A DNA stretch of 58,937 nt from a bacterium (GTDB lineage: Bacteria; Patescibacteriota; Patescibacteriia; JAHIZJ01), in assembly GCA_030699685.1 (NCBI GenBank), contig JAUYLJ010000016.1:1-58937 (forward strand). The letters are read 5' to 3'. Position numbers and translations under genes: made by a program. Below, one piece after another: positions 4,411 through 58,937 of the stretch. The notes below the pieces were generated by a model. It saw nothing but the letters and a program-made list of their open reading frames with translations, did not search any database and was not told the DNA's origin. Every line of letters begins with the position of its first letter. The first letter of the stretch is position 1.

Positions 4411-4412
4411 AC

Positions 4413-21396: not shown

Positions 21397-21401
21397 GAAA
21401 C

Positions 21402-21617
21402 CTAACCTTGACCTTTGCCGTTGCAGCGCTGGATGCAGGCCTGGACGTCGCCGCCGCCCTCACGATAGCAGGCTTTGATACAGCCCCAGCTTGAGTCCTC
21501 ATACTCCATCGGCGCGGCTTCGGCGGATTGGGTCGAGCTTAGCAGGACCGCGTATCCGCCGATGGCGATGCCGACGACGAGGCAGGCGACGATGACGCCT
21601 TTGAGGATATTGCTCAT
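21402..21617 (-). CDS. Small secreted Cys-rich peptide (CX3C-X10-CX3C)
   Basis: Hydrophobic signal/anchor, AEA-A cleavage-like site, then CIKAC-YREGGGDVQA-CIQRC. Confidence 0.7.
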   Translation of the reverse strand: MSNILKGVIVACLVVGIAIGGYAVLLSSTQSAEAAPMEYEDSSWGCIKACYREGGGDVQACIQRCNGKGQG

Positions 21618-21744
21618 CGGGTTGTTCGTTAATTATTATATACAACCCTCAATAAAGGGTCCTTGGGACGACCACCAGTACAGACCATGTAGGTACAGTA
21701 CTCGTGGCGTCCAAGGACACTCGGGTTGAAGGTACGAGGCCGGC

Positions 21745-24531
21745 CTATTTGAGGTAGACCAGCTTCTGACTGACGGAGCTCGTGCTTGTCGTGAGACGCA
21801 CGAAGTACACGCCAGCGGCCAGAGAACGGTCGCGCCAGGAGACGCGGTAGTCACCGGGATCCTGGATCTCGTTGTCAACCAGTGTGGCGATTCTCCGGCC
21901 CTGGGGGTCGAAGACACCGAGATCGACACGGGACAGGCCCGGCAGCGTGTAGCTGATGGTTGTCCCACTGGTCGTAGCCGGATTTGGACCGAGCGACATC
22001 CGCAAGACCGCACGTGCCGCGGTTTCCGGGGCCGAGGAAGGATGAAGCATGTCGGGCAGCCAGACAGGCAGCCCGTAGGTCATCGCCCTCGAGAGGAAAT
22101 CGCGCATCGACGGTTGGGTGTGCCACAGGCGCCGAATGACGCGAAGGTAGATGTCGCCAACCAGCGACAAGTCTTCTGCCATCAGGCGCTCCTGAAAGTA
22201 CTCACGGGCGAATTCGAGGTAGAGCGCCTCTGGTCCGCCGCGGGAGTTTCCAAGAAGCAAGACGACTGAGGCTCCCTCGTCCGGATCAGCCACCGTCACC
22301 ATCTTGGCGAGGCCTGGGTAATAGCTGGGGTTGTTTCTATCCCCATCGCCCAGGCCGCATCCCACAAACTCGGCTACGATCCGCTTCTTCACGGGCAGGT
22401 AGCTCATGTCAAAGATAGGATCATACACCCGCTGGACGATGTAGCCGGGCCAAATGTTGCGGTTGGTGGTTCGGCCGGTACCGATCCACTCCTGGCGGTA
22501 GGCGTTGGCCACGAAGGCATCGAGCCGCTCACCGTATGAGTTGCAGTCGTCGAAGTCGCTGTCACGAATCGGCAGGTAGGAGATACCCGCGTCCTCGAAC
22601 CAGCCGCCGATCTCGTTGAAGGTCAGCCGCGGTTCGTCGGTAATGTTGCACAAGCTGCCGCGATCGCCGACCAGCGCCAGCACGCCCGGGTTGGGGATGT
22701 TGACGCCGTTGTAGTACTCCATCGCAGACTGGACCGCGTTCTCGACCTCGAAGAGCTGATAGGCAGCGACTCGATACGGCAGAACTTCCGGGCCGTCACC
22801 ATAGAAGTCGGTGATGGCCAGATCGCTGGCGCAGGATGACCAGTAGCAGTCGTCATACTCATTGTCGGGATGATAGGTCGTCCCGACCTTGTTCTTCTCT
22901 GGTTCGAGGCCCTCGTTGGCTTCACCAACGATGACGAGCAAGGGCCGCCGCCGCCAATCCGCGTTGACGCAAGATTCGAAGACCCCGCGCATGACATTGC
23001 GACATTCGTAGGGGTCTTCTGAGCCGAGGATCTTTTTGCACACCCAACCCTGATCTTCCCACCATTGGATGACGGGATCGCATGCGTCGAGGAAGTCGCC
23101 TCGCGAGGAGTAGAACACGATGTCGGCCGGCGAATAAGGTCCGCCGCCGCCTTGCGCGTTCGGATCCTGCATGACAGGCAAGGGTCTTGGGAGGGTATTG
23201 GTTGTTCGTAGAAGTTCTAGGTTGGCGGGTGGCACAGAACTCCGGTTGAAGGGTCGCGTTGAGTACTCTGTGTCGGGATCATCATCGGTCTCGACCACCT
23301 CGTACGCATCCGCTCCGACCGGGTCGACTACCTCGTAGTAGTGCGGCCAGTCGGGACCTCCTTCAGCGGGGACGACACCGACGACACGATCCCGGCTCTT
23401 GCCGGCGTAGACCGTGAAGTACTGCGACCCCAGCTCCGGGTCGGTGCTCCAGCAGACGTGGGTGCCGTTGACCTCCTCCCAGGCCCAGGCTCCTTCGAAG
23501 CCGCAAGCCGTATTTGGGTCGTCCGGCACGTCCGCGTAGACGGAAAACTCGTACTCTCCGCCGTTCGGCCCGATACCGTCGGCGTCGAAAGGCTTCCCGC
23601 CTCGTGAGAGCGCTTCGTCGGTCACCATGATCGTGACATCTCCTGGGTCGTAGGGGTGGATGATGAACTCTATCTCATCCCCACGAACGTCGATGTCACG
23701 AAGCACTGCCCGGCCGTTCGCCACGACCGGCGCCCGGTCAGTCAGGTCATCTAACATGTCACTATCGAAACGCACCCAGCCCGGCGTGTCTTCGTAGATG
23801 ACGCCGCCGTTTTGCGGCTCCACCTCGAGAAGTACCGGCGACAGAACCGTCTCGCCGTTCTTGAACTGCGCTAGGTTTGGAGCGAGAATGATGGCGTTAC
23901 CAACCTGCCGATTGTCAATACCGTTACGTCCATCAAGCGCTCCGAAGAGCGTCTCGAAGTCCGAGACGGTGCAGCAAGTGTCGACGCAGGCCACCAGACA
24001 TCTGGCGTCCTGGTACCCGCTCTCCAGCCAAAACTGGCTCCAGCAAGCACGGTAGACGACGAGTTCCTCATTCCCGCCGTCGAAAAGGTAGTTGACGGTT
24101 TCAGGGTTGACGGCGATACCGTAGCCACCCGCCGACTGGGACTTCCAGATCTGGTATTCGTTCCATCCGTTGTCGAGATGGAACTCATACGCGTTGTCCC
24201 GATCGGTTTCGTTTGTGTATGCCTCATAGGTTGAGGCATATTCGGAACCGTGGGTCTCGACGAAGAAGATGGCCCGATGGTACTGCCACTCCAAGTAGAA
24301 CTTGAACTTGGCCAGACCACAGTCCGGAATCGATCCGCTGCCGGAGTCATTGCTAAAGGGAACATAGGCGTAGCCATGGTTGCGAATCACCTCTGGCATG
24401 ACCGAGTATCCTGTGTTCAGGTGGAAGTTGTACGGCTTCAACACCGTAGCGCTGTCGTAGAAGGGATCCCTCGCCGCCCCCATGTTCATGAGGAGCAGGA
24501 GAGTGACAGCAAGAAGCGTGAGCTTGTTCAT
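21745..24531 (-). CDS. Large secreted protein with a divergent C25 (gingipain-like) domain and a C-terminal T9SS/FlgD-type domain
   Basis: Signal peptide; C25-like motif order; C-terminus PNP...TISYTLP...VFDPQGRRIATL...AAGVYFVRL...QKLV. Confidence 0.8.
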   Translation of the reverse strand: MNKLTLLAVTLLLLMNMGAARDPFYDSATVLKPYNFHLNTGYSVMPEVIRNHGYAYVPFSNDSGSGSIPDCGLAKFKFYLEWQYHRAIFFVETHGSEYASTYEAYTNETDRDNAYEFHLDNGWNEYQIWKSQSAGGYGIAVNPETVNYLFDGGNEELVVYRACWSQFWLESGYQDARCLVACVDTCCTVSDFETLFGALDGRNGIDNRQVGNAIILAPNLAQFKNGETVLSPVLLEVEPQNGGVIYEDTPGWVRFDSDMLDDLTDRAPVVANGRAVLRDIDVRGDEIEFIIHPYDPGDVTIMVTDEALSRGGKPFDADGIGPNGGEYEFSVYADVPDDPNTACGFEGAWAWEEVNGTHVCWSTDPELGSQYFTVYAGKSRDRVVGVVPAEGGPDWPHYYEVVDPVGADAYEVVETDDDPDTEYSTRPFNRSSVPPANLELLRTTNTLPRPLPVMQDPNAQGGGGPYSPADIVFYSSRGDFLDACDPVIQWWEDQGWVCKKILGSEDPYECRNVMRGVFESCVNADWRRRPLLVIVGEANEGLEPEKNKVGTTYHPDNEYDDCYWSSCASDLAITDFYGDGPEVLPYRVAAYQLFEVENAVQSAMEYYNGVNIPNPGVLALVGDRGSLCNITDEPRLTFNEIGGWFEDAGISYLPIRDSDFDDCNSYGERLDAFVANAYRQEWIGTGRTTNRNIWPGYIVQRVYDPIFDMSYLPVKKRIVAEFVGCGLGDGDRNNPSYYPGLAKMVTVADPDEGASVVLLLGNSRGGPEALYLEFAREYFQERLMAEDLSLVGDIYLRVIRRLWHTQPSMRDFLSRAMTYGLPVWLPDMLHPSSAPETAARAVLRMSLGPNPATTSGTTISYTLPGLSRVDLGVFDPQGRRIATLVDNEIQDPGDYRVSWRDRSLAAGVYFVRLTTSTSSVSQKLVYLK

Positions 24532-24534
24532 GCG

Positions 24535-25227
24535 TCATTCCCCCACATAGCTCAGAGGCTTGGGTTGAAGGAAGACTGGCTGTGCTTCAGCCGGAATCCT
24601 CAGGTCCTGCGGGGTCCCACCTTCCTGCGCCTGCTCGATGATTCCGAGTAAGCGTGGACGGTCTTTCTGGTCGTAGATACCAACCAGTCTACCGTCCTGG
24701 AAGATGAAGATGTCGCCGTTATCCAGCATGCGCTGATAGGATGCCGCAACCTCGTGAAAAGTTGCGGACTGGAACAGCACATTGGATGTGTAGAGCTCTT
24801 CGATGTTTCCGTCATGGTATCGAACCCAGATGGCGCTTCCGCGCTTGGACGGAACAGCTTCAGCTACCACATCCGCGTGTTCACGGAGCACTTGGGCTCC
24901 TGCCGCTGCGATCTCGGGATAGCTTCCGCCTCGTTGGGCGGCTCTCATCATCACCTCGAAGGCTTCCCTGTCCGCGCGGCCTTTCGCCGTGTCGGAGTAG
25001 GCCTTGGGCACGGACTTGACCATGACCTCAGCCACAAAACCATTGATGGCGATGACGCTGTCTCCGTCGACGAAGCGCACTGAGACCAGGTTCGAGTCGG
25101 GGGTCGGAGTGACGGGGTTGCCGTCAATGATCACTTGCGTCTGGTTCCAGACTTCGGGCAGCTTGGCCTGCGCGGCCATACTGCAAAGAAGTCCGGTCAC
25201 AACCAGAACCAGAGTCATGAGTTTCAT
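24535..25227 (-). CDS. Secreted hypothetical protein
   Basis: Signal peptide ending AQA; SD AGGAGG; stop codon 3 nt before the next gene. Confidence 0.75.
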   Translation of the reverse strand: MKLMTLVLVVTGLLCSMAAQAKLPEVWNQTQVIIDGNPVTPTPDSNLVSVRFVDGDSVIAINGFVAEVMVKSVPKAYSDTAKGRADREAFEVMMRAAQRGGSYPEIAAAGAQVLREHADVVAEAVPSKRGSAIWVRYHDGNIEELYTSNVLFQSATFHEVAASYQRMLDNGDIFIFQDGRLVGIYDQKDRPRLLGIIEQAQEGGTPQDLRIPAEAQPVFLQPKPLSYVGE

Positions 25228-25897
25228 AGAGAACCTCCTCGCGTTTCCGCGATTTTTGGTATTCAGTTGTCAAGGATCGTTCCTTGACGTGCTTCTGCCG
25301 GCCACGCTGGCCTGGTTGCATCAGATCCTCTGGTGCACGCTGGGCGTCTATCCATCATATAGATGGGCGACCAGCAGCCTCGGGGAAGAGATAGCACAAT
25401 GAACACCTGGGATGTGAGGCGGTGGTATGTTTGGATGAATTGTTGTGGCGGTTTCGCTACTGGCTCCCCGCTGCTCAGCTCCCGTTTTTTGGCGGAAATA
25501 AGCGACCAATTTGAGTCAGCGGATCATTACCTCACATCTCTTGCCAGCTTATACCCTTAAGGAAATTTTTGTCAAGAAGGAAGATGAGGGGTAACGGGAA
25601 ATTAAATAATCGTTTTTGTGAGCTTACCTGTGGAAAATTTAGGTAGTTTTTTGGACAATTCAAGCACGATCTTCCTCCCTGCTTACTTCATCCAAAGAAA
25701 TGGATATCGGTTTGAACCACGTTACTATTCATTCGGGATGTTCATCGAAGCTTTGGCGGATTATTCGCATTGGCTAAAGGAGTTAACATAACACCTAAAT
25801 TTATTACCGCTCCGTAAGCCTAGCTCTATGCGAATAAAAAAACCCGGAGGGCTTGATAACCCACCGGGTATGTTTGAGTTTTGGTCCTGACCTGGTA

Positions 25898-26656
25898 TTA
25901 GGAACCAGTAGTCAGTCCCGGAGAGAGCGGCTTCCCGTATCTGGCCAGCTCTACCCAATGCTCTTTCGGGCGAATACGCTTCGACCCTGCTTGGCAGAGT
26001 GGGCAAACATCTGGACCGCTCCAGGTTTGGATGTCGTAGTGTGCGTAAGCTGTCACCGGTCTGTCTTCGAACACCGTCACATCCGACCGGTGAATGAGCA
26101 CTCCAACAACCGGTGCGAACCGGACTGGATGAGGATTGCCATCCCGGATTCCCTGACGGACTGCCTTCAGGGTGCTTGCAGTCGTCATGAGCTCTTCGAC
26201 CTGAAGGACAACCTCGTCGGGAGCAATGGTCAGCCGCTTCCACTGCTGGGTTTTTTCAGGACCCTTTACCGTGAAATCATGCTGAGCATTAGCTCCGATA
26301 GCCACGCTGTGAGAAAGATCGGCTCCAGCGTGGTCAGAGCCGATTACCCAATCAATCGCCCCGTTGTAGCGCTCCCGGATCTTTTCCAGGAGCTTGACGC
26401 CGAAGAGCTGGCAAAGGTTGGTGTATCTCAGAACGCGCAAAGTATCGATAAAGCCGTCACTGCAACCTCCGGCAGTGAGCTCGGCATGCGGATGTTCCGG
26501 ATTGCCGGAATGAAACCACATCGCTTCGCACAGGCCGAAGATATGGCCGATCTCAGCTTCTGAAAGATGGCGTCCGGCAAAGTGTTCGGATTCGAGCTGT
26601 CGGAGCTCGCCCACACTTGTCATTGCGAAGACGTCTTCGGAATTGAGAACTCCCAT
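25898..26656 (-). CDS. pyrE: Orotate phosphoribosyltransferase-like type I PRTase
   Basis: HAELTAG..SDGF, PRPP-loop variant VLQVEELMTTAST, C-terminal CPLC; directly downstream of pyrF. Confidence 0.75.
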   Translation of the reverse strand: MGVLNSEDVFAMTSVGELRQLESEHFAGRHLSEAEIGHIFGLCEAMWFHSGNPEHPHAELTAGGCSDGFIDTLRVLRYTNLCQLFGVKLLEKIRERYNGAIDWVIGSDHAGADLSHSVAIGANAQHDFTVKGPEKTQQWKRLTIAPDEVVLQVEELMTTASTLKAVRQGIRDGNPHPVRFAPVVGVLIHRSDVTVFEDRPVTAYAHYDIQTWSGPDVCPLCQAGSKRIRPKEHWVELARYGKPLSPGLTTGS

Positions 26657-26667: not shown

Positions 26668-27573
26668 CTATCCCTGCGACCCGACGCCCGGAGTAAGTAT
26701 CCGGTAACGGTTGATCTGGTTGTTGAGTTCTTCGGCCTTCAAGCCGGCGGCCTCGGCGAAGTCCTCTCCGTCAGAGGCGAAGATGATTCCGCGAGACGAG
26801 TTGATGATCATCCCGGTTCCATCCTCAGTTTGTCCGGCTTCTACCGCTAGCTGGACTGGGTCACCCTGAACTTCACCGTGATCCGCCTGTTGCTTCCCGA
26901 GGCCGGGATTGAGCAGGTAGACACGGTTTCCGATCGCCTCGCGCATCTGACGCAGCTCGCCGGGATAGGTGGCGCCCATGACGAGGCCGATGTTGCTGTT
27001 GGCGTTCCACTTGGCGGCGATCCGTCTGCCTGACCAGAGCCAATAAGGCTCAGTCAGAGGTTCACCATCCCTCACCCCGGTTAACACCGGCGCGTCTTGC
27101 ATCTCCTGGGCGCCGGGATTGCTGGTCCGGCAGACGAAGATGGCGCCGCGATCCGGACGCTCGAAGAAGGGCGCCATAGACTGGCTGCCCGGGTAGGATC
27201 CCAGCGTGACCGCGTCGGCGCCATAGACGTCGAAGCAGGTGCGGGCGTAGGCCTGGGCCGTGTTCAGGACGTCGAATCTCTTCGCGTCCAGGATAACGAC
27301 GTGATGATGATGCGTTCGGCGGAGTTCCTGGATGGCTTCGATCATCGCGCCCAGCATCCGCGCTTCTTCGTAGAAGGCAATCTGGAACTTGAAGAAGGCG
27401 CAGTGCGGCGCGCACTTCTCGGCGACAGCCAGAACGAACTCAACGATCGCGTCGTGCTGCGGCCGCTTTCGCAGATGGGCGGGTAGCTGACTGACGTCCA
27501 CGTCCATCCCGACGCAGACGAGGCTGTTGGTAAACTTCCAGGCCCGTTCAAGCCGTTCTCTGAAGGTGTCCAT
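26668..27573 (-). CDS. pyrF: Orotidine-5'-phosphate decarboxylase
   Basis: LVCVGMD, FKFQIAFYE, LDAKRFDV, CRTSNPG, VMGAT and INSSRGI motifs; ATG 27573 with SD GGAGG. Confidence 0.92.
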   Translation of the reverse strand: MDTFRERLERAWKFTNSLVCVGMDVDVSQLPAHLRKRPQHDAIVEFVLAVAEKCAPHCAFFKFQIAFYEEARMLGAMIEAIQELRRTHHHHVVILDAKRFDVLNTAQAYARTCFDVYGADAVTLGSYPGSQSMAPFFERPDRGAIFVCRTSNPGAQEMQDAPVLTGVRDGEPLTEPYWLWSGRRIAAKWNANSNIGLVMGATYPGELRQMREAIGNRVYLLNPGLGKQQADHGEVQGDPVQLAVEAGQTEDGTGMIINSSRGIIFASDGEDFAEAAGLKAEELNNQINRYRILTPGVGSQG

Positions 27574-28263: not shown

Positions 28264-28755
28264 CTAGAGCGTTTTCCAGAGGAAAAGGCCGATGATCATG
28301 ATGCCGACCGCTACTTTCACGATTGTGCCGCCGACAAAACCGACCAGGTGGTAGTTTTCCGTCTCAATCTTGTAGATAGCATCGCGGCCGGAAACGAGCT
28401 CACCAATGACCGCGCCGACAATCGGGAGAATCACCAGTACGGCGGGAGTATTAAAACCCGCTCCGATAATTCCTCCGGCCAGCGCTCCTGCCACGCCCCA
28501 GAAGCTGATTTCAAGCTTCCGAGTACCGCGGAGACTGGCGATGAGATCAAGTAAAAACACCAGGATGATCAAGAGTGTGGTCAGGATAAGGAAATTCGCG
28601 TCAATCTTCTCGAACTCGGTGGTAATCCCGTAAATGACCACCACACTCCAGAGTAGGGGTAAGCCAGGGAGGGACGGAAAAATAGTTCCTAAAAACCCGA
28701 TCACCATCAGCAAAGCGGTGACAACGACGAGAAGGGAATTGACTGTTTCAAACAT
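28264..28755 (-). CDS. DUF456 family membrane protein
   Basis: GTIFPSLPGLPLLW, GALAGGIIG and PIVGAVIGEL motifs; ATG 28755. Confidence 0.8.
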   Translation of the reverse strand: MFETVNSLLVVVTALLMVIGFLGTIFPSLPGLPLLWSVVVIYGITTEFEKIDANFLILTTLLIILVFLLDLIASLRGTRKLEISFWGVAGALAGGIIGAGFNTPAVLVILPIVGAVIGELVSGRDAIYKIETENYHLVGFVGGTIVKVAVGIMIIGLFLWKTL

Positions 28756-28765
28756 GATTTTATGA

Positions 28766-29458
28766 TTACCAATCCTTGGCTTGGATCGCGGCTCGGGCGG
28801 CGTTTTCTTCCGCCTCGTGTTTGGAGGCACCGCGACCGCGGGCGATTTCGGTGTTATCGAGGTAGACGCCGATGACGAATTCTTTGGCGTGATCCGGGCC
28901 CGATTCTTCCATCACCTGGTAGCGCGGAGTGATGGATTCGATTTCCTGAGCTTTTTCCTGGAAGCGGCTTTTCGGGTCGAGATACAGCTTGTGTTCGAGG
29001 ATTTCTTCCAGCTTGGGCAGGAGTGTTCGGTGGATGAAATCCTTGGCTTGGTCGTAATCCTGATCCATATAGATCGCGCCGATCACCGCTTCATAAGCGT
29101 TGGCAATGATGTACCGCCGGGCTTTTTCGTTCGTGTCCCGGGCTTCACCGCGGCTCAGGTGAAGTGAATCATAGAGGTTGAGGGCTTCGGCAGCGTCGGC
29201 CAAGGTCTGGCTTTTGACGAGCGAGGCTCTCCAGTTGGTCAGCTCGCCCTCAGGTTTGTCAGGAAAAGCGTCAAAGAGGTGACGGGTCACGACCAGTTCG
29301 AGCACGGCGTCACCCAGGAACTCCAGACGTTCATTGTGGCCCAGGGCGAAACCCGGATGCTCGTTTAAGTATGACCGGTGAACCAACGCTTGGGTTAAGA
29401 GGTCTTGGTCGCGAAACTTCACGCCAATATTTTTTTCTACTTCGGAATGATCTTTCAT
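28766..29458 (-). CDS. rnc: Ribonuclease III
   Basis: NERLEFLGDAVL signature and dsRBD DPKSRFQE...GPDHAKEF; ATG 29458. Confidence 0.97.
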   Translation of the reverse strand: MKDHSEVEKNIGVKFRDQDLLTQALVHRSYLNEHPGFALGHNERLEFLGDAVLELVVTRHLFDAFPDKPEGELTNWRASLVKSQTLADAAEALNLYDSLHLSRGEARDTNEKARRYIIANAYEAVIGAIYMDQDYDQAKDFIHRTLLPKLEEILEHKLYLDPKSRFQEKAQEIESITPRYQVMEESGPDHAKEFVIGVYLDNTEIARGRGASKHEAEENAARAAIQAKDW

Positions 29459-29532
29459 GGTGGCTCCTGGCCGCCCCAGCAAAGGGAACCGGGAATCAAG
29501 TGATGCCGCGCTTCCTGCGCCGATGCGTTTAT

Positions 29533-29982
29533 TTATTGTTTAGGTTGAGATGGTTCACTGATTGTCTGCTCCATGTCTTTATAGATGGCCCCGAGCACGC
29601 CGTTGACAAACTTTCCGGATGACTCGCCGCCAAAGGACTTGGCGAGCTCAATCGCTTCGTTGATCGCCACTTTCGGGGGAATGTCATCGTCAAAGCGCAG
29701 TTCAAAAACTCCGATCCGGAGTATATTCCGATCGACGACGGTAATCTGCGCCAGCGGCCATTCGGGAGCGTATTTCGTGATAAGCTCATCGATCTTCGGC
29801 TGATGCTGCAGCACCCCTTCGACGATATGAAGAGTGAATTTCGGATCGTCAAACCCGGGGGCGAATTTGTCTATATTCTTCTTGGCGGTGTCAGTGATGC
29901 GTCCAGTCGTTTTTTGACCATTGAAATCCCACTCATAGAGGGTTTGCATGGCGACGGTGCGTCCGAGATGACGATTGGACAT
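29533..29982 (-). CDS. nusB: Transcription antitermination factor NusB
   Basis: [21 protein letters not shown] and FVNGVLG motifs. Confidence 0.97.
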
Positions 29983-29993
29983 GGAAACTTCGC

Positions 29994-30269
29994 TTAGGTG
30001 ACGATGTTTTTTTCGGAAGCCTCTTCCGCGGCTTTTTGTTCCTGTTTGGCCCGTTCTTTTCTCTCTTGTTTGGCTTTCTCCTTGTTGCGAGAGAAAGTGA
30101 TATCAATCACTTCGCGGCCGCGATAGGTGCCGCAAAACCCGCAGGCTCTGTGAGGCAAAACCGGCTTCTTGCATTTTGGACACGTCAACAGGGCTCTGGG
30201 CTGGCTGTGAATATGGGAGCGCCGGTTGCCGCGTCGTGATTTCGTTCCTTTTTTTGTTGGGAGAGCCAT
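29994..30269 (-). CDS. rpmF: 50S ribosomal protein L32
   Basis: MALP..K..KSRR..RRSH, CPKC and [14 protein letters not shown] motifs. Confidence 0.96.
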
Positions 30270-30460: not shown

Positions 30461-31204
30461 TTAGCATCTGTTATGAAGCTTCCATTGTTCCTCATGTCCG
30501 ATATTTTTTGCCCAATCAGGCACGATACAATTTTCATCAACAACTGACGATTGGTTATCATTAATCATTTGCGCGTTCGCGGCTGTCCGTGTTTGTTTGG
30601 CAAAAATGCCGGAGACGCCGAGGCTTACCACCAACACTATAAACATCGCGGCTATGCTCGCGTGAAGGAGAGATACATTTTGTATTTTTTCCGGTTTAAA
30701 CTCTTCACACGTGCCGCCGGGGCATATTTGCGCTTTGTCTTTTTTGAAGAAATTATAGAGAGAGCAACCGATGCAGATCCCAAGCGCTGATTCAAAGAAC
30801 AGGAGCGTTAGGCAAATCAGGCATAGTAAAAGATTGACCGGTCCAACGATGTTATTTACCACCAACACGATGAACATCGTTGCCGCCAGCCCCAATCCCA
30901 GACCCCACGCAAAACGTTTTTGCGCTACGCCCGTGTACTCCACGTTTTGCCTGCGCACAAGCAAGCGGCCGATGATCAATGTCGGCGCGTACCGGGGATT
31001 GACGACCACCCTGATCACGAAGTCTATCAGAAACGAGGTGATAAAAATTTTCATTAATATAAAATCACCCGTATACCCGGCGCTCATAAACGAGGCGAAC
31101 GCGGCGAGAAGCAATATCCCCGCGGCGGTGCGAACTTCACGTTCATTCAGGACGGGTACCACATAACCTTCAATTTGTTCGCCAAAGTGTATTATCTTGC
31201 TCAT
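30461..31204 (-). CDS. DUF4395 family membrane protein
   Basis: NEREVR.AAG, QKRFAW and ESALGICIGC motifs. Confidence 0.8.
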   Translation of the reverse strand: MSKIIHFGEQIEGYVVPVLNEREVRTAAGILLLAAFASFMSAGYTGDFILMKIFITSFLIDFVIRVVVNPRYAPTLIIGRLLVRRQNVEYTGVAQKRFAWGLGLGLAATMFIVLVVNNIVGPVNLLLCLICLTLLFFESALGICIGCSLYNFFKKDKAQICPGGTCEEFKPEKIQNVSLLHASIAAMFIVLVVSLGVSGIFAKQTRTAANAQMINDNQSSVVDENCIVPDWAKNIGHEEQWKLHNRC

Positions 31205-31205
31205 T

Positions 31206-48884: not shown

Positions 48885-49181
48885 ATGCTTTCGTTACTAA
48901 TAAAAAAAGATTACGAAAAAAATGAGTGGCGGCATTTTCTTATGCAGCAAGGATTTTTTCAGGATGAACTCAGTATTCCTCGGCCGGGGTCGAGAGAATT
49001 GCAAAATCTGTTGTCCTGTGCCAGAAACTATGTCAGTCAGAAAGAAATGTCCCGCAACCCTCTAGTCTATCTGGAGGCAATCAGTTATTGCGTTCTGCGA
49101 AAATCGTACGATGCTTTAGAAGCGTCACAACAACGGGCGGTTGCAAGTTTCGCGGAGCACATTGGGCATAGATCCGCATAA
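48885..49181 (+). CDS. Hypothetical protein
   Basis: 98-aa ORF co-oriented with and tightly spaced between neighbours. Confidence 0.55.
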   Translation: MLSLLIKKDYEKNEWRHFLMQQGFFQDELSIPRPGSRELQNLLSCARNYVSQKEMSRNPLVYLEAISYCVLRKSYDALEASQQRAVASFAEHIGHRSA

Positions 49182-49197: not shown

Positions 49198-50082
49198 ATG
49201 AATAAATCAATAAATAGCATACTTGCGATTATCGTGCTCGCCATCCCGGCGGCGTTGATTGTCATATACGGATTTTACAAAGACAACTCTTATGACCTGC
49301 AGCCGAATTATATCAGCAGGAATTCTTCCTCAGAAGTACGGGCATCGTTTTCAGACCTTCAATCAGTTTGTGACATTTTGACATCAAAACGATGGACGTA
49401 CACCAGGCAGAATTCATCTTTACTGGCTAATGAAATAGCCTCGTGGAGCTTTGACGCTGAAGGCGGGGTGGAGTATAGATTCTTTTCCGACTACGAAGAT
49501 ACTGACGTGGGCAGATGGTATCCTCTGCGAATTGTAACCAACCTGGAAGCCGAGGTGCTCCTGCTGATGGATCCGATCGACGCGGTACAGGCTACCGGGG
49601 TCTATTCCGTGAAGCTGGATGAGAACGGGCTGAACATTGATGGCGCTCCTTTTCTTGGCGATGAGCGTTCGATTGTCGATATGGAGGGCTGTGATTTTTT
49701 CCGGAGTCAAACGTCGGAAGACGATTATGCCGCTTACGAAGCGCTGACCTCGCAGGAATGGGGCAATGATGAATTTACCTTTGCGTTTTCTGACCAAGCT
49801 ACCTATGTTCAAGATCAGTCCAACGCGAATTTCGAAGGGAAATGGAATATCACCGAAGTGAAGGAAGGTGAGGGCACGCTCACGCTTGACGGTTGGTTTG
49901 AATTCGATAGAAATGGCAATGCGATTGACCAAGTGGACAGGAGAAACGGTTGGGCGCGATATCGTTTCAACCTCTCGGAAACCAGTCTTAGCCTGGAACT
50001 TATTGAGTATAAAGATAATTTAGTTGACACGCTCCCGCTGGTGGATCAGCTTGGTGAGGCTATCGTTTTAACTCCTCAATAA
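49198..50082 (+). CDS. Membrane-anchored protein with two lipocalin-like beta repeats
   Basis: N-terminal TM; LTS..W....F....G.W pattern occurs twice; ATG 49198. Confidence 0.65.
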   Translation: MNKSINSILAIIVLAIPAALIVIYGFYKDNSYDLQPNYISRNSSSEVRASFSDLQSVCDILTSKRWTYTRQNSSLLANEIASWSFDAEGGVEYRFFSDYEDTDVGRWYPLRIVTNLEAEVLLLMDPIDAVQATGVYSVKLDENGLNIDGAPFLGDERSIVDMEGCDFFRSQTSEDDYAAYEALTSQEWGNDEFTFAFSDQATYVQDQSNANFEGKWNITEVKEGEGTLTLDGWFEFDRNGNAIDQVDRRNGWARYRFNLSETSLSLELIEYKDNLVDTLPLVDQLGEAIVLTPQ

Positions 50083-50289
50083 AGAGCTAGTTGTTGCATG
50101 GATATTGCTCAATGGGGAACCCTTTTGTTTTTCTCATTTCGAGTTGTGTTACTATAGCTTGGCAAGATCCTCTGTACCCAAGGGTCGTAGGAGAGGGAAG
50201 AACGCTTCTTTATCAAAGGGGTATGCCAACGATCTCTCTTTTACTTTTTTAAAAACAAAAACCGGACTCAGGGTCCGGGGAAAGAATGT

Positions 50290-51720
50290 TCAAACGAAGG
50301 TGGTTGCTTCTTCAGTCTCGGTTGCCTTCGGCGGGCTGAAGTGAGAATCAGCCTTTTGAGGTTTCTGGCGAAGAAGAAAGGTCAGCACCAAGGGCGGAAT
50401 CAGCGTAGTCAGTACCACCATGATGATGACTACTGAGAAGACCGTATCCGGCACCACTCCCAATGCCTGCCCGATAGTGATAAAGATCAGACCCACTTCT
50501 CCGCGCGGTACCATGCCCCAGCCTACCACCAGCCTGTTGCCCTTTCCCGCAGCCAGGCCAGCCACTAGCTTACCGATGAAAGCGGCTAGGGTGATGCCAA
50601 GCGCCATGAGCATGACCGCAGGATCGGCAAAGGTAGTCAGCTCCACCCCCATCGAAGTCCGTACGAAGAAAACCGGAACAAAGACATAGGCCAGGGGTTG
50701 AATCAGATCCTCAACATGCGAGTGATTGGCTTGATGGACCAGGGTGGCAAGCGACGTCCGTTGCTCTCTGCTCATTCCTTGAGTGGCGCTTTCGATGTCG
50801 CGACAGATCTTTGGAGAATCGAAGCTCCTGAAGTCGACGGGATCCAGGACAAGCCCAGCCGCGAAGGCTCCGACGATCGGTGCCAGACCGGCCACGCCCG
50901 CCACGTAAGAGGTGATCAGCCCGAAGCTTAGGGCGAAACAGAGCTTCATGCCGGGTCCAGTGTCAAGACGCGAGAAGAAGCGACTGATGTGGCCCGCGAA
51001 GAGCATTCCGAAAAGGATTGCTCCGGCCAGGAAGAGAAAGGCTTTGAAGAAGATGACACCTACGACCAACAAGCTGACTGATCCGGCCGTAACGATTGAT
51101 CTGACCACGGTGAGAAACAACAAACCGAATACGTCGTCAATCACCGCCGCCCCAGATACCAACTTGGCCGCGATCGATGATATTTGACCCAGATCTTCAA
51201 AGACGCGAGCGGTAATGCCGACGGAAGTGGCCGTCAATGTCGCGCCCAGGAACAGGTAGGTGTGAGCTTCGTATCCCGGCATGACCAGCGGGCCAACGAC
51301 TTTCCAACCCAGAACAAAGGGGACAATGACACCGATGATGGCGATCATAAGCGCCCGAAGGCCCACTGCCCGCATCTCCCGCAAGTTGGACTCCAGGCCT
51401 ATCTTGAAAAGCAGGAGCATTACCCCGAATTCCGACAGGAACCCGATAACCGCGTCGGTTTTCATGGGCTCCAGATAGTGGAACCCGATCAGGCCAAGGT
51501 TGCCCAGAAGTATTCCGACGAAGAGTTCGCCCAGAACTTCCGGTTGACGAAAGCGCTTGACGGCCGCTCCCGCAATCTTGGCTGACAGGATAATCAGCGC
51601 CAGCCAAAGCAGGGTAATTGCGGAGTGAGAGCCTATTTCCCCGTCCGAGGCTTGGGCGGGGGTATGGACGCCACATAGAAGAATAGCGGTGATAGAGAGC
51701 CAGAATTTCAGCCTGATCAT
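50290..51720 (-). CDS. Cation:proton antiporter (Na+/H+ exchanger, CPA2-like)
   Basis: P.VLGEL..G, GLES, ATSVGIT, AAVIDD and GMVPRGEVG motifs; ATG 51720 after AAAGGA. Confidence 0.93.
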   Translation of the reverse strand: MIRLKFWLSITAILLCGVHTPAQASDGEIGSHSAITLLWLALIILSAKIAGAAVKRFRQPEVLGELFVGILLGNLGLIGFHYLEPMKTDAVIGFLSEFGVMLLLFKIGLESNLREMRAVGLRALMIAIIGVIVPFVLGWKVVGPLVMPGYEAHTYLFLGATLTATSVGITARVFEDLGQISSIAAKLVSGAAVIDDVFGLLFLTVVRSIVTAGSVSLLVVGVIFFKAFLFLAGAILFGMLFAGHISRFFSRLDTGPGMKLCFALSFGLITSYVAGVAGLAPIVGAFAAGLVLDPVDFRSFDSPKICRDIESATQGMSREQRTSLATLVHQANHSHVEDLIQPLAYVFVPVFFVRTSMGVELTTFADPAVMLMALGITLAAFIGKLVAGLAAGKGNRLVVGWGMVPRGEVGLIFITIGQALGVVPDTVFSVVIIMVVLTTLIPPLVLTFLLRQKPQKADSHFSPPKATETEEATTFV

Positions 51721-51971
51721 AGATTCCTTTCCAGGGGCTGTACCGAAAGTGAAAGAACATGCAGCTAACTTCCAGCGATAGTATACAGAATTTAGCCTAC
51801 TAGGCAAGCCTGGCAAAATCCGGATCAGTGGATAACCGGATAAAAAAGAACCCCGGGCGGTATTTTAATGGAGATAAATGGCTTTGTGGTCAAAGTAGAT
51901 GTCAGACGAAATGCTACTCCCGTATACAAACACGACTAGATGCATGATAACGGTTGTTTTTATGCAACGAA

Positions 51972-52494
51972 CATCGCGTCGCCAAAAGAAGCGGTCAGTA
52001 TCATTGAAAAACAAAAAGGCCCTCGAATTAGCGAGCGGCCAGTCTTTCTACTTCTGTGCGTGAGCTGGACTCAGTGACTCCGAGACGACGCATAAGCTTC
52101 GCCTGCTCTTGTCTTTTCGTCTCGGTACACTCCGTGCAGCACTGTTTTCTAACAACGAGTGCCTGGGCGAGGCGCAGTACCACTCGAGAAGCGGTAACCG
52201 AACCAAGCGAAAAAGATCTTCCTTCTCCAGAAATTCTTCGGACGATCAGTTCGTGTTCGGCGACTGGGTTTTCTCCCTTCTGCTTACAGTAGTAGCACCT
52301 GGATCGAGACGGTCGTTCGTACACCTCAGCGCTGACTGAGAAGTTCCAACCTAAGTAAATGAGCTGGTATCTGTGCACGTTTCCTCCTCATTCAGTCTAT
52401 TCTGAAACGCTTATCCAGAACCCGACACAATAACCAACATTCTATCACATGTCAAGTGTCGTGTTTATGTAATCAGCATCGCGTCGCCAAAAGA
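51972..52494 (-). mobile_element. 505-bp insertion at the queA 3' end, bounded by 18-bp direct repeats
   Basis: CATCGCGTCGCCAAAAGA at 51972-51989 and 52477-52494; the distal copy continues as an alternative queA end, SFGDAMFVA*. Confidence 0.75.
52028..52378 (-). CDS. Small basic protein with two CxxC motifs (putative Zn finger)
   Basis: SD AGGAGG and GTG start; CYYC and CTEC; promoter TTGACA-17-TATTGT (52455-52427). Confidence 0.7.
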   Translation of the reverse strand: MHRYQLIYLGWNFSVSAEVYERPSRSRCYYCKQKGENPVAEHELIVRRISGEGRSFSLGSVTASRVVLRLAQALVVRKQCCTECTETKRQEQAKLMRRLGVTESSSRTEVERLAAR

Positions 52495-53490
52495 GTAGAA
52501 ACGATAGTGTTTTTTAATTGCTGTTTCGTAGGCTTTGAGGACTTTCGTCCGTCCAGCAAAGGCGGACACGAGTATGAACAAAGTTGATTTTGGCAAATGA
52601 AAGTTGGTGATCATGGCGTCAGTCATTTTGAATTTGTAGCCGGGTATGATGAAGATATTAGTTGACTGGCTGATTTGTTGATTCGTTAATTGGCGAGGCA
52701 GGCTTTCGAGCGTGCGAACGGTGGTGGTGCCGACAGCGATGATGCGCCGCCCCTCTCTTTTAGCTTTGACCAGCCGTTGATAAACCGCCTTTGACATCTC
52801 TAGATGTTCAGGATGCATTCGGTGACGTTCGATGGTCGTTTCTTTGACCGGCTGGAAGGTTCCGTAGCCGACGTGCAGCGTGACATATTCGATCTGGACG
52901 CCCAGCGTTCGTATGCGGTTCATGAGTCGATTCGTGAAATGAAAACCGGCAGTTGGCGCGGCCACTGATCCGGATTTTTTTGCGAACACTGTTTGATATT
53001 CTTTGAGATTGGAAAGGCGTTTAACGTACGGGGGCGTAGGAGCGGTACCGAGCCGATGGATAGCGGCTCGGAGTTTCGCGCCGGACCGGTTGAAACGAAT
53101 ATGCCAAGTGCCGTTGGTGAGGTGTTTGATAACAACTCCTTTCAGACCGCCAAACCTTTGTTTTTCCATGCTGATTTCAAGACCGACCCGCCGCCCTTTC
53201 CCGCCCAAGAGGCACTCCCAGGTATTCGCGCTGACAGGCTTGAGCAAAAACACTTCTATTTTTCCTCCACTTTCTTTTCGGGCATTGAGACGGGCCGGAA
53301 AGACTTTTGTATTATTCAAAACGAGTACGTCGCCTGATTTGAGATATTCAGTAATTTCAAAAAAATGCCGGTGACTGATCGCTCCGGTTTTTCGGTTGAG
53401 CACCAAAAGACGTGATTGATCGCGCGGCCGGACCGGTTTCTGGGCGATTCGATCAGGAGGAAGGTGAAAATCAAAAAGTGACAGTTTCAT
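52465..53490 (-). CDS. queA: S-adenosylmethionine:tRNA ribosyltransferase-isomerase
   Basis: IAQ.P, GSVAAPTAG.HF, TLHVG.GTF, TNFHLPKSTL and YRFYSFGDAM motifs. Confidence 0.98.
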   Translation of the reverse strand: MKLSLFDFHLPPDRIAQKPVRPRDQSRLLVLNRKTGAISHRHFFEITEYLKSGDVLVLNNTKVFPARLNARKESGGKIEVFLLKPVSANTWECLLGGKGRRVGLEISMEKQRFGGLKGVVIKHLTNGTWHIRFNRSGAKLRAAIHRLGTAPTPPYVKRLSNLKEYQTVFAKKSGSVAAPTAGFHFTNRLMNRIRTLGVQIEYVTLHVGYGTFQPVKETTIERHRMHPEHLEMSKAVYQRLVKAKREGRRIIAVGTTTVRTLESLPRQLTNQQISQSTNIFIIPGYKFKMTDAMITNFHLPKSTLFILVSAFAGRTKVLKAYETAIKKHYRFYSFGDAMLIT

Positions 53491-53569: not shown

Positions 53570-54403
53570 CTAAATGGGGTAGGGAGTGTCCCGCCGAACG
53601 AGCCAGATTCGATCGGCCTCTCCGGAAAGGTGTTCCCAGCCGTAGAGCGGCTCTGGTCGGGCTGGATCGGTCAAGGTGCGCACACGAGATGAATGGTCGC
53701 CGACAGTCATGACGGAATCAATTTGGACGACCTCAATGCCAGGCTGAATCGGCTTGTTGTGCCAGTAGAGCTTATCGCCTGGTCTCAAAGTGAGAAAACG
53801 ACCTTCAGTCAGCGCATACTCGTCATAGTTTCCGTCGCGCGTGACGCGATGGGAGACCGAAGTGATTGGTATGCGCATGATACGGAGCGGAAGCTCTACC
53901 TGCACCCGCTGTGAAGTCAGCAGTCTGGCTGTTGAGTTTAACCTGTGGGGATCAGGTGCGTCTGTCTTCATCACCTCCTGAAGCCCGAAGAGGACCTCGT
54001 CGGTGATCTCAAATCGATACGTCATGAAAAGACATTGACCCATGTGGCGGTTGTAGGCCAACAGAAGCTTGCCACGACATTGGGGGCCGTAGGGGCCCCA
54101 GGCGTAGTATAGCTGGAACATCGTCGAAGAGTCATCGAGTATCACCCAGCAAGAGTCGCAGTCTTGCCAAACCGCGAAGTTTGTCATGAATTCGTCAGGA
54201 GGATCCTGTACCATGTTACGAACAAGGACCACGGGGTAACGCCCCGTATCGAGGTGCTCCCTTGGGTATCGCACGAAGTCTCGGCTAGCCACGAGGTTGG
54301 CTTCGTTGATCTCATCATCGAGATGGTTCTGGCCGCAGCCTGACGTAGCAATGGCTATTTCAAGCAACGACATAAACACAATAAGGAACGACCAGCTTCT
54401 CAT
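53570..54403 (-). CDS. Putative lipoprotein (probable paralog of 57313-58062)
   Basis: SD GGAGGT; signal peptide with TSGC lipobox-like site. Confidence 0.7.
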   Translation of the reverse strand: MRSWSFLIVFMSLLEIAIATSGCGQNHLDDEINEANLVASRDFVRYPREHLDTGRYPVVLVRNMVQDPPDEFMTNFAVWQDCDSCWVILDDSSTMFQLYYAWGPYGPQCRGKLLLAYNRHMGQCLFMTYRFEITDEVLFGLQEVMKTDAPDPHRLNSTARLLTSQRVQVELPLRIMRIPITSVSHRVTRDGNYDEYALTEGRFLTLRPGDKLYWHNKPIQPGIEVVQIDSVMTVGDHSSRVRTLTDPARPEPLYGWEHLSGEADRIWLVRRDTPYPI

Positions 54404-57312: not shown

Positions 57313-58062
57313 CTAAGGGGCATCTTCGCTAATGGGCGGGTTTTCCCAAAGGGTATTTGCCCCCCTCGGAAGGACGACGGCGTCCTCTGCTGCCTCGGCC
57401 ACTTCTGGCCAGGTGATCCAGCGTGGATCACCGTAGTATTCATCGATCGATTGGACAAGGATGCGGTTACCCTCTCGGTCCAGAACCCGATCGACGCTTG
57501 CGGGGTGGCTTGCTTCCTCGTACCACTCTATGATGTCGCCGGGTACGAGCATGTCGAAGTGTGGCGGCGTGGCAAGAACCGGACGTTGATTTCCCGAGGC
57601 CGAGATGGATGCGTGACTATGAGAGTCTATGCGGATTATCTCGAGCCGGGTGAGGAATTGCCTGGCGTCTCGGAACTTGAGATCAGTGCGTATCGGCAGT
57701 GAAAACATGTAACCGAGATGCCGGTTCTGTAGTGGTGAGAGTCGGCAGTTTTCACCGATGATCTCCAGGGCTTGGTTGCCCGGAGAGTAGACCAGTATCA
57801 GATTGATCTCCGGTAAGCCACCCTCAGGTTGGGGCAGTCCGCCGAAGCGCTGATAGACGAGATCATTGCCACGCAGGGTGGACCCGATCTTGTCTGGCGG
57901 ATGCCCAGACTCGGCGACGCCATGGGCCAACAGCTTCTGGTCATAATTCAGCCCGGGGATAGTCACTGCCTCCTGGCGTGTTTCCTCGGACTGCTGAGAG
58001 CAGCCGGCGAAGAAAACCAGATGGGCCAGTATGGTCAGGGAAAAGATCATGCAGCGGTTCAT
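57313..58062 (-). CDS. Putative lipoprotein (probable paralog of 53570-54403)
   Basis: ATG 58062 after AAGGA; lipobox FAGC; promoter TTGACG-17-TAGAGT near 58140-58168. Confidence 0.7.
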   Translation of the reverse strand: MNRCMIFSLTILAHLVFFAGCSQQSEETRQEAVTIPGLNYDQKLLAHGVAESGHPPDKIGSTLRGNDLVYQRFGGLPQPEGGLPEINLILVYSPGNQALEIIGENCRLSPLQNRHLGYMFSLPIRTDLKFRDARQFLTRLEIIRIDSHSHASISASGNQRPVLATPPHFDMLVPGDIIEWYEEASHPASVDRVLDREGNRILVQSIDEYYGDPRWITWPEVAEAAEDAVVLPRGANTLWENPPISEDAP

Positions 58063-58209
58063 AACTCTTTCCTTCCAGGTTCGAGGATTGGCACTTCCAG
58101 GCGGGAAATTGTGAGAGGACATTTGATCTAGACCTACGACTCTACCCGAAAAGTGCTGACGCGTCAATACGCCGGAAATTGACAAGAGGCAGGAATACAT
58201 TATTATTCC

Positions 58210-58355
58210 TCCTAGTAACTTCAGGCTGCCGTCTCAATGGCGTTCCGGTAGAGACGGCAGCGTAGTGCTAGCCGGAACGTCAACCAGAGTTCTGCGCTTG
58301 GCTGGCGCAGCGCCCCGTTTCATAAGTCTCTGAGGCTGAAAAGGCGGGGTTTTTT
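58210..58355 (+). ncRNA. Candidate pseudoknotted small RNA of unknown family
   Basis: Upstream TTGACA(58179)-16 nt-TATTAT; 11-bp stem plus 12-bp loop pairing; downstream hairpin; intrinsic terminator. Confidence 0.55.
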
Positions 58356-58501
58356 ATTCATCCACTTTGAGTTGGCCGGCAGTCCAGAAGGAGGATTGAC
58401 AGAAACAGTTTTCTCGTGTACAAACACTTGCAGCCAACATCATGTGAGCAATCGATCCTTGAAAATTAAATCAAGCGTTTACTCAGGAAAGGGGCTTTAC
58501 C

Positions 58502-58937
58502 GTGTTTAATCGGCAAATGCTTGAAAAGCAGCTGACTTGGACGGGCTGGCCGTCCTTTGCCGTCATGTTTATCGCGGGCAGCGCCGCGATTTTGTCTGCG
58601 CTCATCCCCGATCTGCACACGCTGACCTTTGAGCTGAATTTTCCGAAGCGGATCGTCTGCCATCGTCACGCGGCGGACACTGAATTCGTGCTTGGCTGTG
58701 CCGTCGAAGAGTTGCGGAAAATTGTTCCGACGCCGGTGGAGTATTTCATCATTGAAGAAGGTTGGACGCTGAATGACTACGTGGCCAGGACCCGGCATCT
58801 TTGGGAAACATACCGGAGAGGAGAGATTCCCGCGCTTCCGGAGGTGAATCCTGACAAACTGGAGAGGATCGAACTCACCTGGTTCCAGGGACAGGGGTTA
58901 GTCATCGGCTATGCGTACAGCGACATGCTCAATTCAG
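58502..58937 (+). CDS. Hypothetical membrane-anchored protein, truncated by the window end
   Basis: GTG 58502 after AGGAAAGGGG; frame open to the window end (VFNRQMLEKQLTWTGWPSFAVMFIAG...); promoter TTGACA(58396)-17-TACAAA. Confidence 0.7.
   Translation, partial: MFNRQMLEKQLTWTGWPSFAVMFIAGSAAILSALIPDLHTLTFELNFPKRIVCHRHAADTEFVLGCAVEELRKIVPTPVEYFIIEEGWTLNDYVARTRHLWETYRRGEIPALPEVNPDKLERIELTWFQGQGLVIGYAYSDMLNS

Follow-up and report, generated by a model that had tools for sequence, protein, structure and literature searches.

We found that the genes of a bacterium of the taxonomic class Patescibacteriia fall into two groups that differ in their translation start signals: most have no Shine-Dalgarno (SD) sequence, and about 5-11% have a strong one. 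The DNA in which this was noticed (hereafter the window) is the entire contig JAUYLJ010000016.1 of 58,937 nucleotides (nt), contig C55 of the 70-contig genome GCA_030699685.1 (here G000; 1.15 Mb, 97% complete, GC content ~0.50). Sequencing runs that contain window DNA are groundwater metagenomes. Why SD-poor bacteria keep the anti-SD sequence in their 16S rRNA is an open question that has been studied almost only in Bacteroidia. Our overall reading, to which we give a probability of roughly 0.6, is that two modes of initiation operate in this cell, and that the SD has been retained in a distinct, partly acquired pool of genes and in a few native genes.

Genes were called with a purpose-written caller (dicodon log-odds, trained on 513 long open reading frames, ORFs), yielding 1131 genes at a coding density of 85%. 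Starts were picked first without regard to the SD (SD-blind), and then with the SD and learned start weights taken into account (SD-aware). As the strength of an SD we took the ViennaRNA energy of the duplex that ACCUCCUUU forms with positions -20 to -3, and we refer to an SD of -8 kcal/mol or below as strong. The same pairing measured at -70 to -52 and within genes served as a control. The starts of csrA (37552), rpmF (30269) and rpsU were corrected from Pfam alignments; that of infC was also miscalled. The 16S rRNA carries CCUCC at its 3' end, so the anti-SD is intact, as stated in a preliminary description of the region from 21400 to 58937.

6701..8190, minus strand: 16S rRNA (Rfam RF00177, 1474 bits), 3' end GGAUCACCUCCUUUCU

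Strong SDs precede 8.5% of 1117 genes with SD-blind starts and 128 of 1119 genes (~11%) with SD-aware starts, compared to ~2.5% of control segments. That is, the share is small yet above chance. (At -4.4 kcal/mol or below, control segments already reach ~15-23%.) Energies of -12 or below are 8-30 times as frequent as in the controls, and those between -7 and -2 are depleted, at 0.4-0.96 of the control frequency. There are almost no genes with a middling SD, and therefore the two classes are real. The tetramers GGAG, GAGG and AGGA peak at -14 to -8 from the start codon. Starts that lack an SD lie in A/T-rich, G-poor and weakly folded contexts. The preliminary description had proposed two translational classes and a genome-wide check for bimodality; the classes hold and extend genome-wide and to relatives.

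A separate signal was seen at some starts. TATAAT-like hexamers peak exactly 12 nt upstream of the start codons of first genes (24 vs ~4 per position), for example at rpmF (30269), and a few percent of the mRNAs look leaderless. We considered leaderless mRNAs as the main default mode and rejected this, as the peak comprises only a few percent of genes.

Between 21400 and 58937 (~37 genes) about one strong SD is expected by chance, and we observed eight genes and one gene fragment. The preliminary description had listed 11 SD-led starts in this region. All 11 have an SD-like site. Seven are strong (-10.2 to -12.8 kcal/mol), but four (37552, 51720, 58062 and 58502) are weak (-5.7 to -7.3) and individually not above chance. 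Two starts that were not on that list, 24531 (-8.4) and 48885 (-10.0), are also SD-led. The core genes that had been described as lacking an SD (rpsP, khpA, trmD, an MFS gene, smc, rpmF, nusB, gyrA, queA and four glycan genes) score from +2.0 to -1.5, and two of the exceptions that had been pointed out are borne out: rnc has an SD-like site (-6.6) and the gene at 21617 has none (0.1). The claim that most cassettes have their own promoter and terminator was partly correct. In consensus scans, a promoter-like site, sigma-70-like in the SD-led genes, lies within 150 nt upstream of 5 of the 11 genes and a terminator-like hairpin follows ~6 of them. The strong sites are as follows (energies in kcal/mol; aa, amino acids).

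21745..24531, minus strand: 928-aa secreted protein; SD GGGGGA, -8.4; GC 0.598
24535..25227, minus strand: SD-led gene, GAGGAGG, -12.3; 230 aa, signal peptide, no Pfam family, GC 0.58; heads a riboswitch operon
26668..27573, minus strand: pyrF (orotidine monophosphate decarboxylase; Pfam PF00215); SD GGGGAGGA, -10.8; GC 0.616
31514..31615, minus strand: remnant (33 aa) of a MOSC N-terminal domain (Pfam PF03476, E 7.5e-5, 23 bits, cut-off 25); SD GAGGAGGA, -11.5
31794..32204, minus strand: SD-led gene, GGAGGT, -10.2; 136 aa, N-terminal hydrophobic segment, no family; terminator-like hairpin downstream
32444..33016, plus strand: SD-led lipoprotein-like gene, AAGGGGGTGA, -12.5 (-16.9 with the 15-nt tail); 190 aa, no family
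48885..49181, plus strand: conserved 98-aa gene; SD GGGGGGA, -10.0; low GC (0.446)
52028..52378, minus strand: SD-led ORF, GAGGAGGA, -11.5; 116 aa, GTG start, no family; missed by the gene caller; promoter-like site at 52455-52427
53570..54403, minus strand: SD-led lipoprotein-like gene, AGGGAGGT, -12.8; 277 aa, no family; promoter-like and terminator-like sites

The SD-led genes differ in composition from the rest of the genome. In G000 their GC is 0.535, compared to 0.498 for SD-less genes (p = 2e-15). Of the genes in the top GC quintile, 30.8% are SD-led (20.3% if starts are SD-blind), compared to 3-7% in each of the lower quintiles, and so are 13 of the 15 genes whose GC is 0.60-0.64. Third codon positions (GC3) show the widest gap, 5-16 points in five genomes (G000, G005, G003, G006 and G002): 0.608 vs 0.559 in G000 and, at its maximum, 0.745 vs 0.586 in G003. 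Cys and Trp are enriched in the encoded proteins and Lys is depleted. SD-led genes are also shorter and score lower with the native coding model. They tend to head their own transcription units, with a median upstream spacer of 105 nt (55 nt for SD-less genes). Signal-peptide-like sequences are found in 25 of 122 SD-led and 106 of 822 SD-less genes, a lipobox in 4 of 122 and 1 of 822, and 24 of 45 SD-led genes have no Pfam family, compared to 16 of 55 sampled SD-less genes. We considered arrays of SD-led cassettes and rejected them, as there are 15 adjacent SD-led pairs where 13.6 are expected; SD-led genes are scattered. The earlier impression of foreign-looking, scattered genes thus agrees with their GC and GC3, and also with their enrichment among non-syntenic genes and the patchy distribution of csrA (both below).

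Could the pattern be an artefact of wrong starts, of chance G-rich stretches ahead of GC-rich genes, or of chimeric contigs? The gene calls are home-made, and the starts of csrA, rpmF, rpsU and infC were wrong. However, SD-blind starts give the same pattern, the control segments (at -70 to -52 and intragenic) show no dependence on GC (0.6-4.7% in each quintile), the motif peaks at the correct distance from the start, and the same orthologs are SD-led in separate assemblies. Assembly chimeras, raised in the preliminary description, were not found: unitigs of two runs, one of which may be the source of the assembly, tile 21400-41399 at an even depth (~8-10), and the junctions between core and SD-led genes are bridged, by one unitig from 21400 to 28816 and by another from 36075 to 41399. 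We consider an artefact extremely unlikely.

We compared the window to 80 kb of syntenic DNA from each of four other genera of the family (G002, G003, G005 and G006). The core is collinear in all four, gyrA being accompanied by rnc, nusB, queA, smc and the glycan genes. In contrast, most of the flagged genes are missing at the syntenic place, with islands at 30461-33751, at 49198-52378 and beyond 53570. These islands hold SD-less genes too. The gap between rpmF and gyrA is a hot spot, and G005 has different SD-led genes there.

28264..30269, minus strand: core block DUF456-rnc-nusB-rpmF; no SDs other than weak ones at rnc (-6.6) and DUF456 (-5.2); DUF456, rnc and nusB are 65-78% identical in all four relatives
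30461..33751, no strand assigned: variable island between rpmF and gyrA, absent there in the four relatives; SD-led and SD-less genes mixed, the latter including DUF4395 (31204), a CsoR-like gene (31478) and the gene at 33751
33757..36204, minus strand: gyrA; SD-less (+1.5); 77-79% identical in the four relatives and SD-less in all
49198..52378, no strand assigned: variable island just before queA in window coordinates, with an SD-less gene (294 aa), the antiporter and the 52378 gene; absent there in the four relatives
52465..53490, minus strand: queA; SD-less (-1.5); 65-69% identical in the four relatives

When only the 80-kb syntenic regions were taken and four genera pooled, with kin that are not independent, conservation in two or more further genera was seen for 12 of 61 SD-led and for 89 of 201 SD-less genes (odds ratio 0.31, p = 5e-4). 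In these data GC goes with the SD class and not with conservation: it is 0.574 for variable and 0.565 for conserved SD-led genes, and 0.495 and 0.507 for variable and conserved SD-less genes. Both classes are present in every relative of the family, with 15-21 SD-led genes per 80 kb and GC of 0.555-0.614 vs 0.474-0.512.

The SD state of a gene is a heritable property that is conserved between orthologs of different genera. When orthologs in G000 and three genera were paired, 43 pairs had no SD in either member and five had one in both. The remaining pairs were SD with middling (1), SD with none (2), none with middling (3) and none with SD (1), the last being due to the miscalled csrA start. 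The conserved gene at 48885 is present in all four relatives, with its SD retained only in G005.

Several SD-led genes are old members of the family. The riboswitch operon (the genes at 25227 and 24531 in the window) consists of an SD-led gene for a secreted protein of 230-250 aa followed by at least one gene for a large protein. Counterparts of the riboswitch precede the equivalent SD-led gene in G005, G006 and G002, i.e., in four genera with G000 (loci L011, 14225-14339; L019, 12911-13021; L023, 7919-8043; class c-di-GMP-II or c-di-GMP-II-GAG). Orthologs of the 25227 gene in G005 and G002 are likewise SD-led, and the 928-aa protein has orthologs in G005 (42% identity, SD -11.2) and G002 (37%). 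Riboswitches of this class would sense cyclic di-GMP (c-di-GMP), yet the genome, 97% complete, gave no GGDEF domain (PF00990); the true ligand may be another molecule, or one that comes from outside the cell.

25437..25543, minus strand: riboswitch aptamer of the c-di-GMP-II-GAG type (RF03169, 40.4 bits, cut-off 40), in the leader of the 25227 gene
25898..26656, minus strand: gene for 252 aa, family unknown; weak SD (-5.5), strong in the G005 ortholog (-11.6)

G005 also has the pyrF block, every SD included, at 34-56% identity; PyrF itself is 56% identical and its SD there is -12.2. In a quick IQ-TREE run the PyrF of the family stands alone on a long branch and appears to form an old, family-specific clade. 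We looked for a donor of PyrF, and the tree of 120 homologs gave no sister group. On another contig, pyrD (dihydroorotate dehydrogenase with a Fer4 domain) and an adjoining P-loop gene, guanylate-kinase-like by eye, are both strongly SD-led (G000:C63:21300-23017, minus strand). Thus both pyrimidine genes that were identified, pyrF and pyrD, are SD-led.

G005 has csrA at the same place with 92% identity and an SD of -11.6, and G002 has a weaker match there. Matches to csrA over the cut-off are found in 15 of 201 genomes of the taxonomic class. The csrA loci of the class (L128-L139) have a strong SD in 9 of 12 cases, and the GC of csrA (~0.53-0.59) is above that of its surroundings, for example 0.53-0.55 in loci with a GC of 0.385. 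This suggests that csrA has been exchanged between families of the class.

37552..37803, plus strand: csrA (Pfam PF02599); GTG start; weak SD GGAAAGGA, -5.7; terminator downstream
50290..51720, minus strand: Na+/H+ exchanger family antiporter (Pfam PF00999); weak SD GGAAAGGA, -5.9; GC 0.562

Named homologs of the antiporter are from the Candidate Phyla Radiation (CPR) and one DPANN archaeon (51-58% identity). An SD-led hydrolase on contig C8 (GC 0.613) has its nearest named relatives in Variovorax and Xenophilus (Comamonadaceae; 39-45%). The affinities of PyrF, the antiporter and the hydrolase are unalike, which suggests that the donors of SD-led genes differ. The MOSC remnant at 31514-31615 appears to be a decayed SD-led gene, and in that case shows that some SD-led acquisitions decay.

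These results bear on the proposal, made in the preliminary description, that the SD-led genes are either serial captures from an SD-using donor, plausibly the host, or a set built for expression or action in the host. It is true that SD-led genes are GC-rich, scattered and often secreted, that one GC-rich hydrolase is nearest Comamonadaceae, and that a c-di-GMP-type riboswitch without a GGDEF domain in the genome makes an outside signal conceivable. Neither version is supported. Other genera also have the riboswitch operon, the pyrF block and csrA, SDs included, with key cassettes at the same place at 34-56% identity, and no shared donor lineage emerged: PyrF has no donor among its homologs and the named relatives of the antiporter are CPR (with one DPANN archaeon). 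Signal peptides and lipoboxes imply that the cell itself translates and exports these proteins, the same type of SD is found on native genes (HU, pilins, rpsU, serS and rpsB), and many island genes are SD-less at native GC. No mobile-element genes beside the cassettes were seen among the domain identities of window genes, nor was a transfer apparatus. Two protein identifications that had accompanied the proposal did not stand. The C-terminus of the 928-aa protein matches the type IX secretion system sorting domain (Por_Secre_tail) below the cut-off (20.5 vs 27 bits, E 6e-4), and none of the 38 translated ORFs of 20156-58936 matches Peptidase_C25. We saw no evidence that SD-led genes were taken from a host or are expressed in one, and regard a host-directed or host-derived set as very unlikely.

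The SD-led class is not purely accessory. The longest SDs in the genome are on genes for HU, a type IV pilin-like protein, a type IV secretion system pilin, small membrane proteins (DUF1761 and DUF378), serS, a gmk-like gene and rpsU, all at native GC, and rpsB (-8.4), fmt and pyrD are likewise SD-led. It is possible that the SD only tunes expression, wherever a gene comes from: it would sit on genes whose translation must be very high, burst-like or controlled post-transcriptionally, and the link to GC would be a side effect. The strongest SDs being on these native genes, the riboswitch ahead of one SD-led operon, and the tendency of SD-led genes to head their own transcription units would all fit. 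But aminoacyl-tRNA synthetases, NusA, trigger factor and SecG are SD-less, as are most ribosomal-protein genes, and tuning of expression explains neither a GC3 gap of up to 16 points nor the surplus of non-conserved genes of unknown function. We think it unlikely that tuning is the whole explanation.

We favor two initiation modes in one cell. An SD-independent default would serve ~90% of genes, including nearly all of the conserved core, and a minority of ~5-11% has a canonical strong SD, located 5-9 nt before the start codon, that would pair with the retained anti-SD. The SD-led state tracks GC- and GC3-rich ('foreign') composition rather than gene position. One component would be a long-standing accessory pool of mixed origin, often in islands and often secreted, lipoprotein-like or of unknown function, that includes pyrF, pyrD, csrA and the riboswitch-controlled operon. 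The other would be native genes, few in number, whose small products (HU, pilins and bS21) are abundant or self-regulated. Based on these results we infer that the pool is of foreign origin and that selection maintains the SDs of the SD-led genes, which would supply initiation and a regulatory handle (for the riboswitch and possibly for CsrA) that GC-richer leaders could not get from the SD-independent route. That the two classes exist, are linked to GC and are conserved across genera and the taxonomic class is observed directly.

Several points weigh against this reading. High GC is kept in orthologs that are only 34-56% identical, which a plain relic of a donor would not predict. Neither GC nor accessory status is sufficient for an SD, as 89 GC-rich genes have none and 112 non-conserved genes are SD-less at native GC. 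Foreign origin is shown for no gene of the window, and the C8 hydrolase is the one clear non-CPR affinity. Support is weak for the step in which folding of GC-rich leaders makes an SD necessary: start regions are overall more folded in SD-led genes (-7.32 vs -6.05 kcal/mol), but among GC-rich genes the values are -7.62 and -6.94 (p = 0.18). We therefore rejected the SD as compensation for folded starts as a finding, the difference being mostly gone once gene GC is controlled, and kept it only as an inference. The start calls are heuristic, and because SD-aware choice inflates the counts, the SD-blind figures are safer. Finally, no RNA run was listed as containing 24001-34000 of the window.

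The SD of rpsU, which encodes ribosomal protein bS21, raises a further explanation.

G000:C36:8746-9009, plus strand: rpsU (locus L046); GTG start at 8746; 11-bp SD AAGGGAGGUGA, -17.6 with the 15-nt tail

The extended site, AAGGGAGGTGA, has an energy of -17.6 kcal/mol by ViennaRNA duplexfold, which is not the program used in the Bacteroidota study cited below. The site is present in all seven genomes of the family (-17.2 to -17.7 in the six relatives), and among other genomes of the taxonomic class with a bS21 match, 11 of 19 have an rpsU SD of -15.9 or below (rpsU loci L047-L071 were examined). These include G016 and G028, whose sampled DNA is nearly without other SD-led genes. The 18 other ribosomal-protein genes on contig C3 score from +0.9 to -9.4, and with the 9-nt probe rpsP, rpmF and rpsB score +0.6, +0.5 and -8.4. 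rpsU thus has the strongest SD of the ribosomal-protein genes examined. Genome-wide it ranks 13th, and 25 genes reach -15 or below, compared to 5 mock segments.

In the available portions of McNutt 2023 (PMC9976891), the features used for Bacteroidota are an rpsU SD below -13 kcal/mol and rpsU being the top ribosomal-protein gene, and in Flavobacteriales rpsU is typically the one gene that stands out. The accessible parts of Jha 2021 (PMC7797042) describe a 'less basic' bS21 tail in Bacteroidetes with a signature Tyr54, and a 16S tail held by bS18 (Phe50, Asn56, Gln58 and K/R37) and by the C-terminal helix of bS6 (Trp100 and Arg103). By analogy, most ribosomes of the class might hide or ignore their anti-SD, the rpsU SD might report an autoregulatory loop in which ribosomes that lack bS21 translate rpsU, and in this family the other SD-led genes, 60-120 of them, GC-rich and largely accessory, might be a regulon translated mainly by bS21-free ribosomes. 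If so, ribosome composition would gate the expression of acquired genes (secreted proteins, pyrF and pyrD, csrA and the riboswitch operon).

Both features given for Bacteroidota in the portions of PMC9976891 are found in rpsU of G000, its long SD being kept in the family and beyond and the SDs of other ribosomal-protein genes being much weaker, and the depletion of middling SD-like sequences at starts also fits. However, rpsU is just 13th, and the 25 genes at -15 or below include HU and pilins, which should be abundant proteins. The bS21 is E. coli-like (31 bits to E. coli-type chains vs a weak 15.6 bits to F. johnsoniae 7jil_z), and its C-terminal part is strongly basic (isoelectric point 10.3, net charge ~+10), unlike the tail described in the available parts of PMC7797042. 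SDs that are kept across genera suggest a routine function, and genomes without a bS21 match are not richer in SDs (G007, G009 and G011; values below). We consider such a specialized-ribosome regulon distinctly unlikely, and prefer two initiation modes used by the same cell.

The two-class trait belongs to the taxonomic class and not to G000 alone. With SD-blind starts, the share of strong SDs in sampled DNA is 16% in G019, 12% in G025, 10% in G018, 8% in G020, 6% in G028, 3% in G007, G009 and G022, 2% in G016, 0 of 24 genes in G011 and 2 of 16 in G008; control segments for these other families give 0-4.5%. Where they are numerous enough, SD-led genes are GC-richer, as in G019 (p = 2e-7), G025 (p = 0.0015) and G020 (p = 0.009). 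A bS21 match is absent from 5 of 31 genomes of the class, and three of the five use almost no SD.

We considered the presence of bS21 as a switch for SD use and rejected it. G007, G009 and G011 have no match and almost no SDs, but G016, G022 and G028 have bS21 and are equally poor (2-6%), and G025 has no match and is 12% SD-led. A variant anti-SD was seen in two other families (CAUCUCCUUU and UAUCUCCUUU, compared to CACCUCCUUU; 16S 3' ends at L162 in G019 and L165 in G009).

The remaining features of the window touch the two classes less directly. Two of the weak flagged sites belong to genes near the end of the contig.

57313..58062, minus strand: lipoprotein-like gene, 249 aa, no family; weak SD GGAAGGAAAG, -6.3
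58502..58936, plus strand: ORF truncated by the contig end; GTG start; weak SD GGAAAGGGG, -7.3

Between 54451 and 56421 (plus strand) is an SD-less gene with a GTG start. Its 656-aa product has domains of the Big_5 and peptidase C39-like types, and the gene is missing from the syntenic DNA of the relatives. Adjoining the 16S gene, an array of 12 small same-strand genes (11-6330, plus strand), mostly SD-less, is also absent from the syntenic regions of the four relatives. It encodes three glyoxalase/Ble-like proteins, DUF1428, AHSA1, RibD_C, DUF2200, DUF1801, NUDIX, an AAA_33 kinase, a cupin and an RRM protein. The 660-nt non-coding spacer 3' of csrA (37846-38510) is made up of repeat modules, with further copies at ~8 sites elsewhere in the genome, and a repeat core of 24-30 nt around 38051-38080 has exact matches in several other families. 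No tRNA was found in the spacer, and an Rfam search of 37400-38600 gave nothing at E of 1 or below.

Our results point to a second lineage, the CPR, unrelated to Bacteroidia, in which the SD is neither general nor down to one gene. Instead it singles out a tenth of the genome that is distinct in composition and in part accessory, and this state is inherited across genera. A strong SD together with high GC3 could serve as a sequence-only marker of the flexible or acquired gene pool in uncultured bacteria, and the idea follows that foreign genes may keep their own mode of initiation after transfer into an SD-independent host. There is also a practical consequence: gene callers with a single start model will misplace starts in such genomes, as happened here for csrA, rpmF and rpsU. 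In listings of the literature on Shine-Dalgarno with Candidate Phyla Radiation or Patescibacteria, which do not cover supplements, the pattern is apparently undescribed, and 'Patescibacteria' is not mentioned in PMC9976891, PMC13000453 or PMC10783764.

Bacteroidia, some Cyanobacteria and 'group X' of GeneMarkS-2 are likewise poor in SDs and retain the anti-SD. They resemble G000 in that most genes are SD-less, the 16S rRNA has CCUCC, starts are A-rich and weakly folded, and middling SD-like sequences are rarer than in mock segments. In contrast to them, ~5-11% of genes here have strong canonical SDs that are tied to gene GC and accessory status, and the lineage is Patescibacteria. The SD-led genes also resemble the atypical, horizontally acquired genes of GeneMarkS-2: a minority deviant in GC and GC3, with a lower native coding score and enriched in variable regions. 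Atypical genes are frequently lower in GC, according to the available part of PMC6028130, whereas here the deviation is upward, is coupled to a different start signal and persists at 34-56% identity.

The likeness to rpsU autoregulation in Bacteroidota lies in an extended rpsU SD that is far above those of other ribosomal-protein genes and is kept across the family and much of the class. The differences are the E. coli-like bS21 with its basic tail and the many other genes with equally long SDs. Because the extended SD on rpsU is class-wide, it suggests that the bS21 feedback of Bacteroidota may be older or more widespread than thought. Within the CPR, some Parcubacteria have lost the anti-SD and bS21, as reported in the accessible portions of Tsurumaki 2022 (PMC9297842). 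The setting is alike in giving up the SD, with bS21 matches missing from some genomes of the class that are nearly SD-free. In contrast to those Parcubacteria, G007 and G011 retain a canonical anti-SD despite almost no use of SDs, and in G000 and its family the anti-SD and bS21 are both retained, along with a minority of SDs that look to be working.

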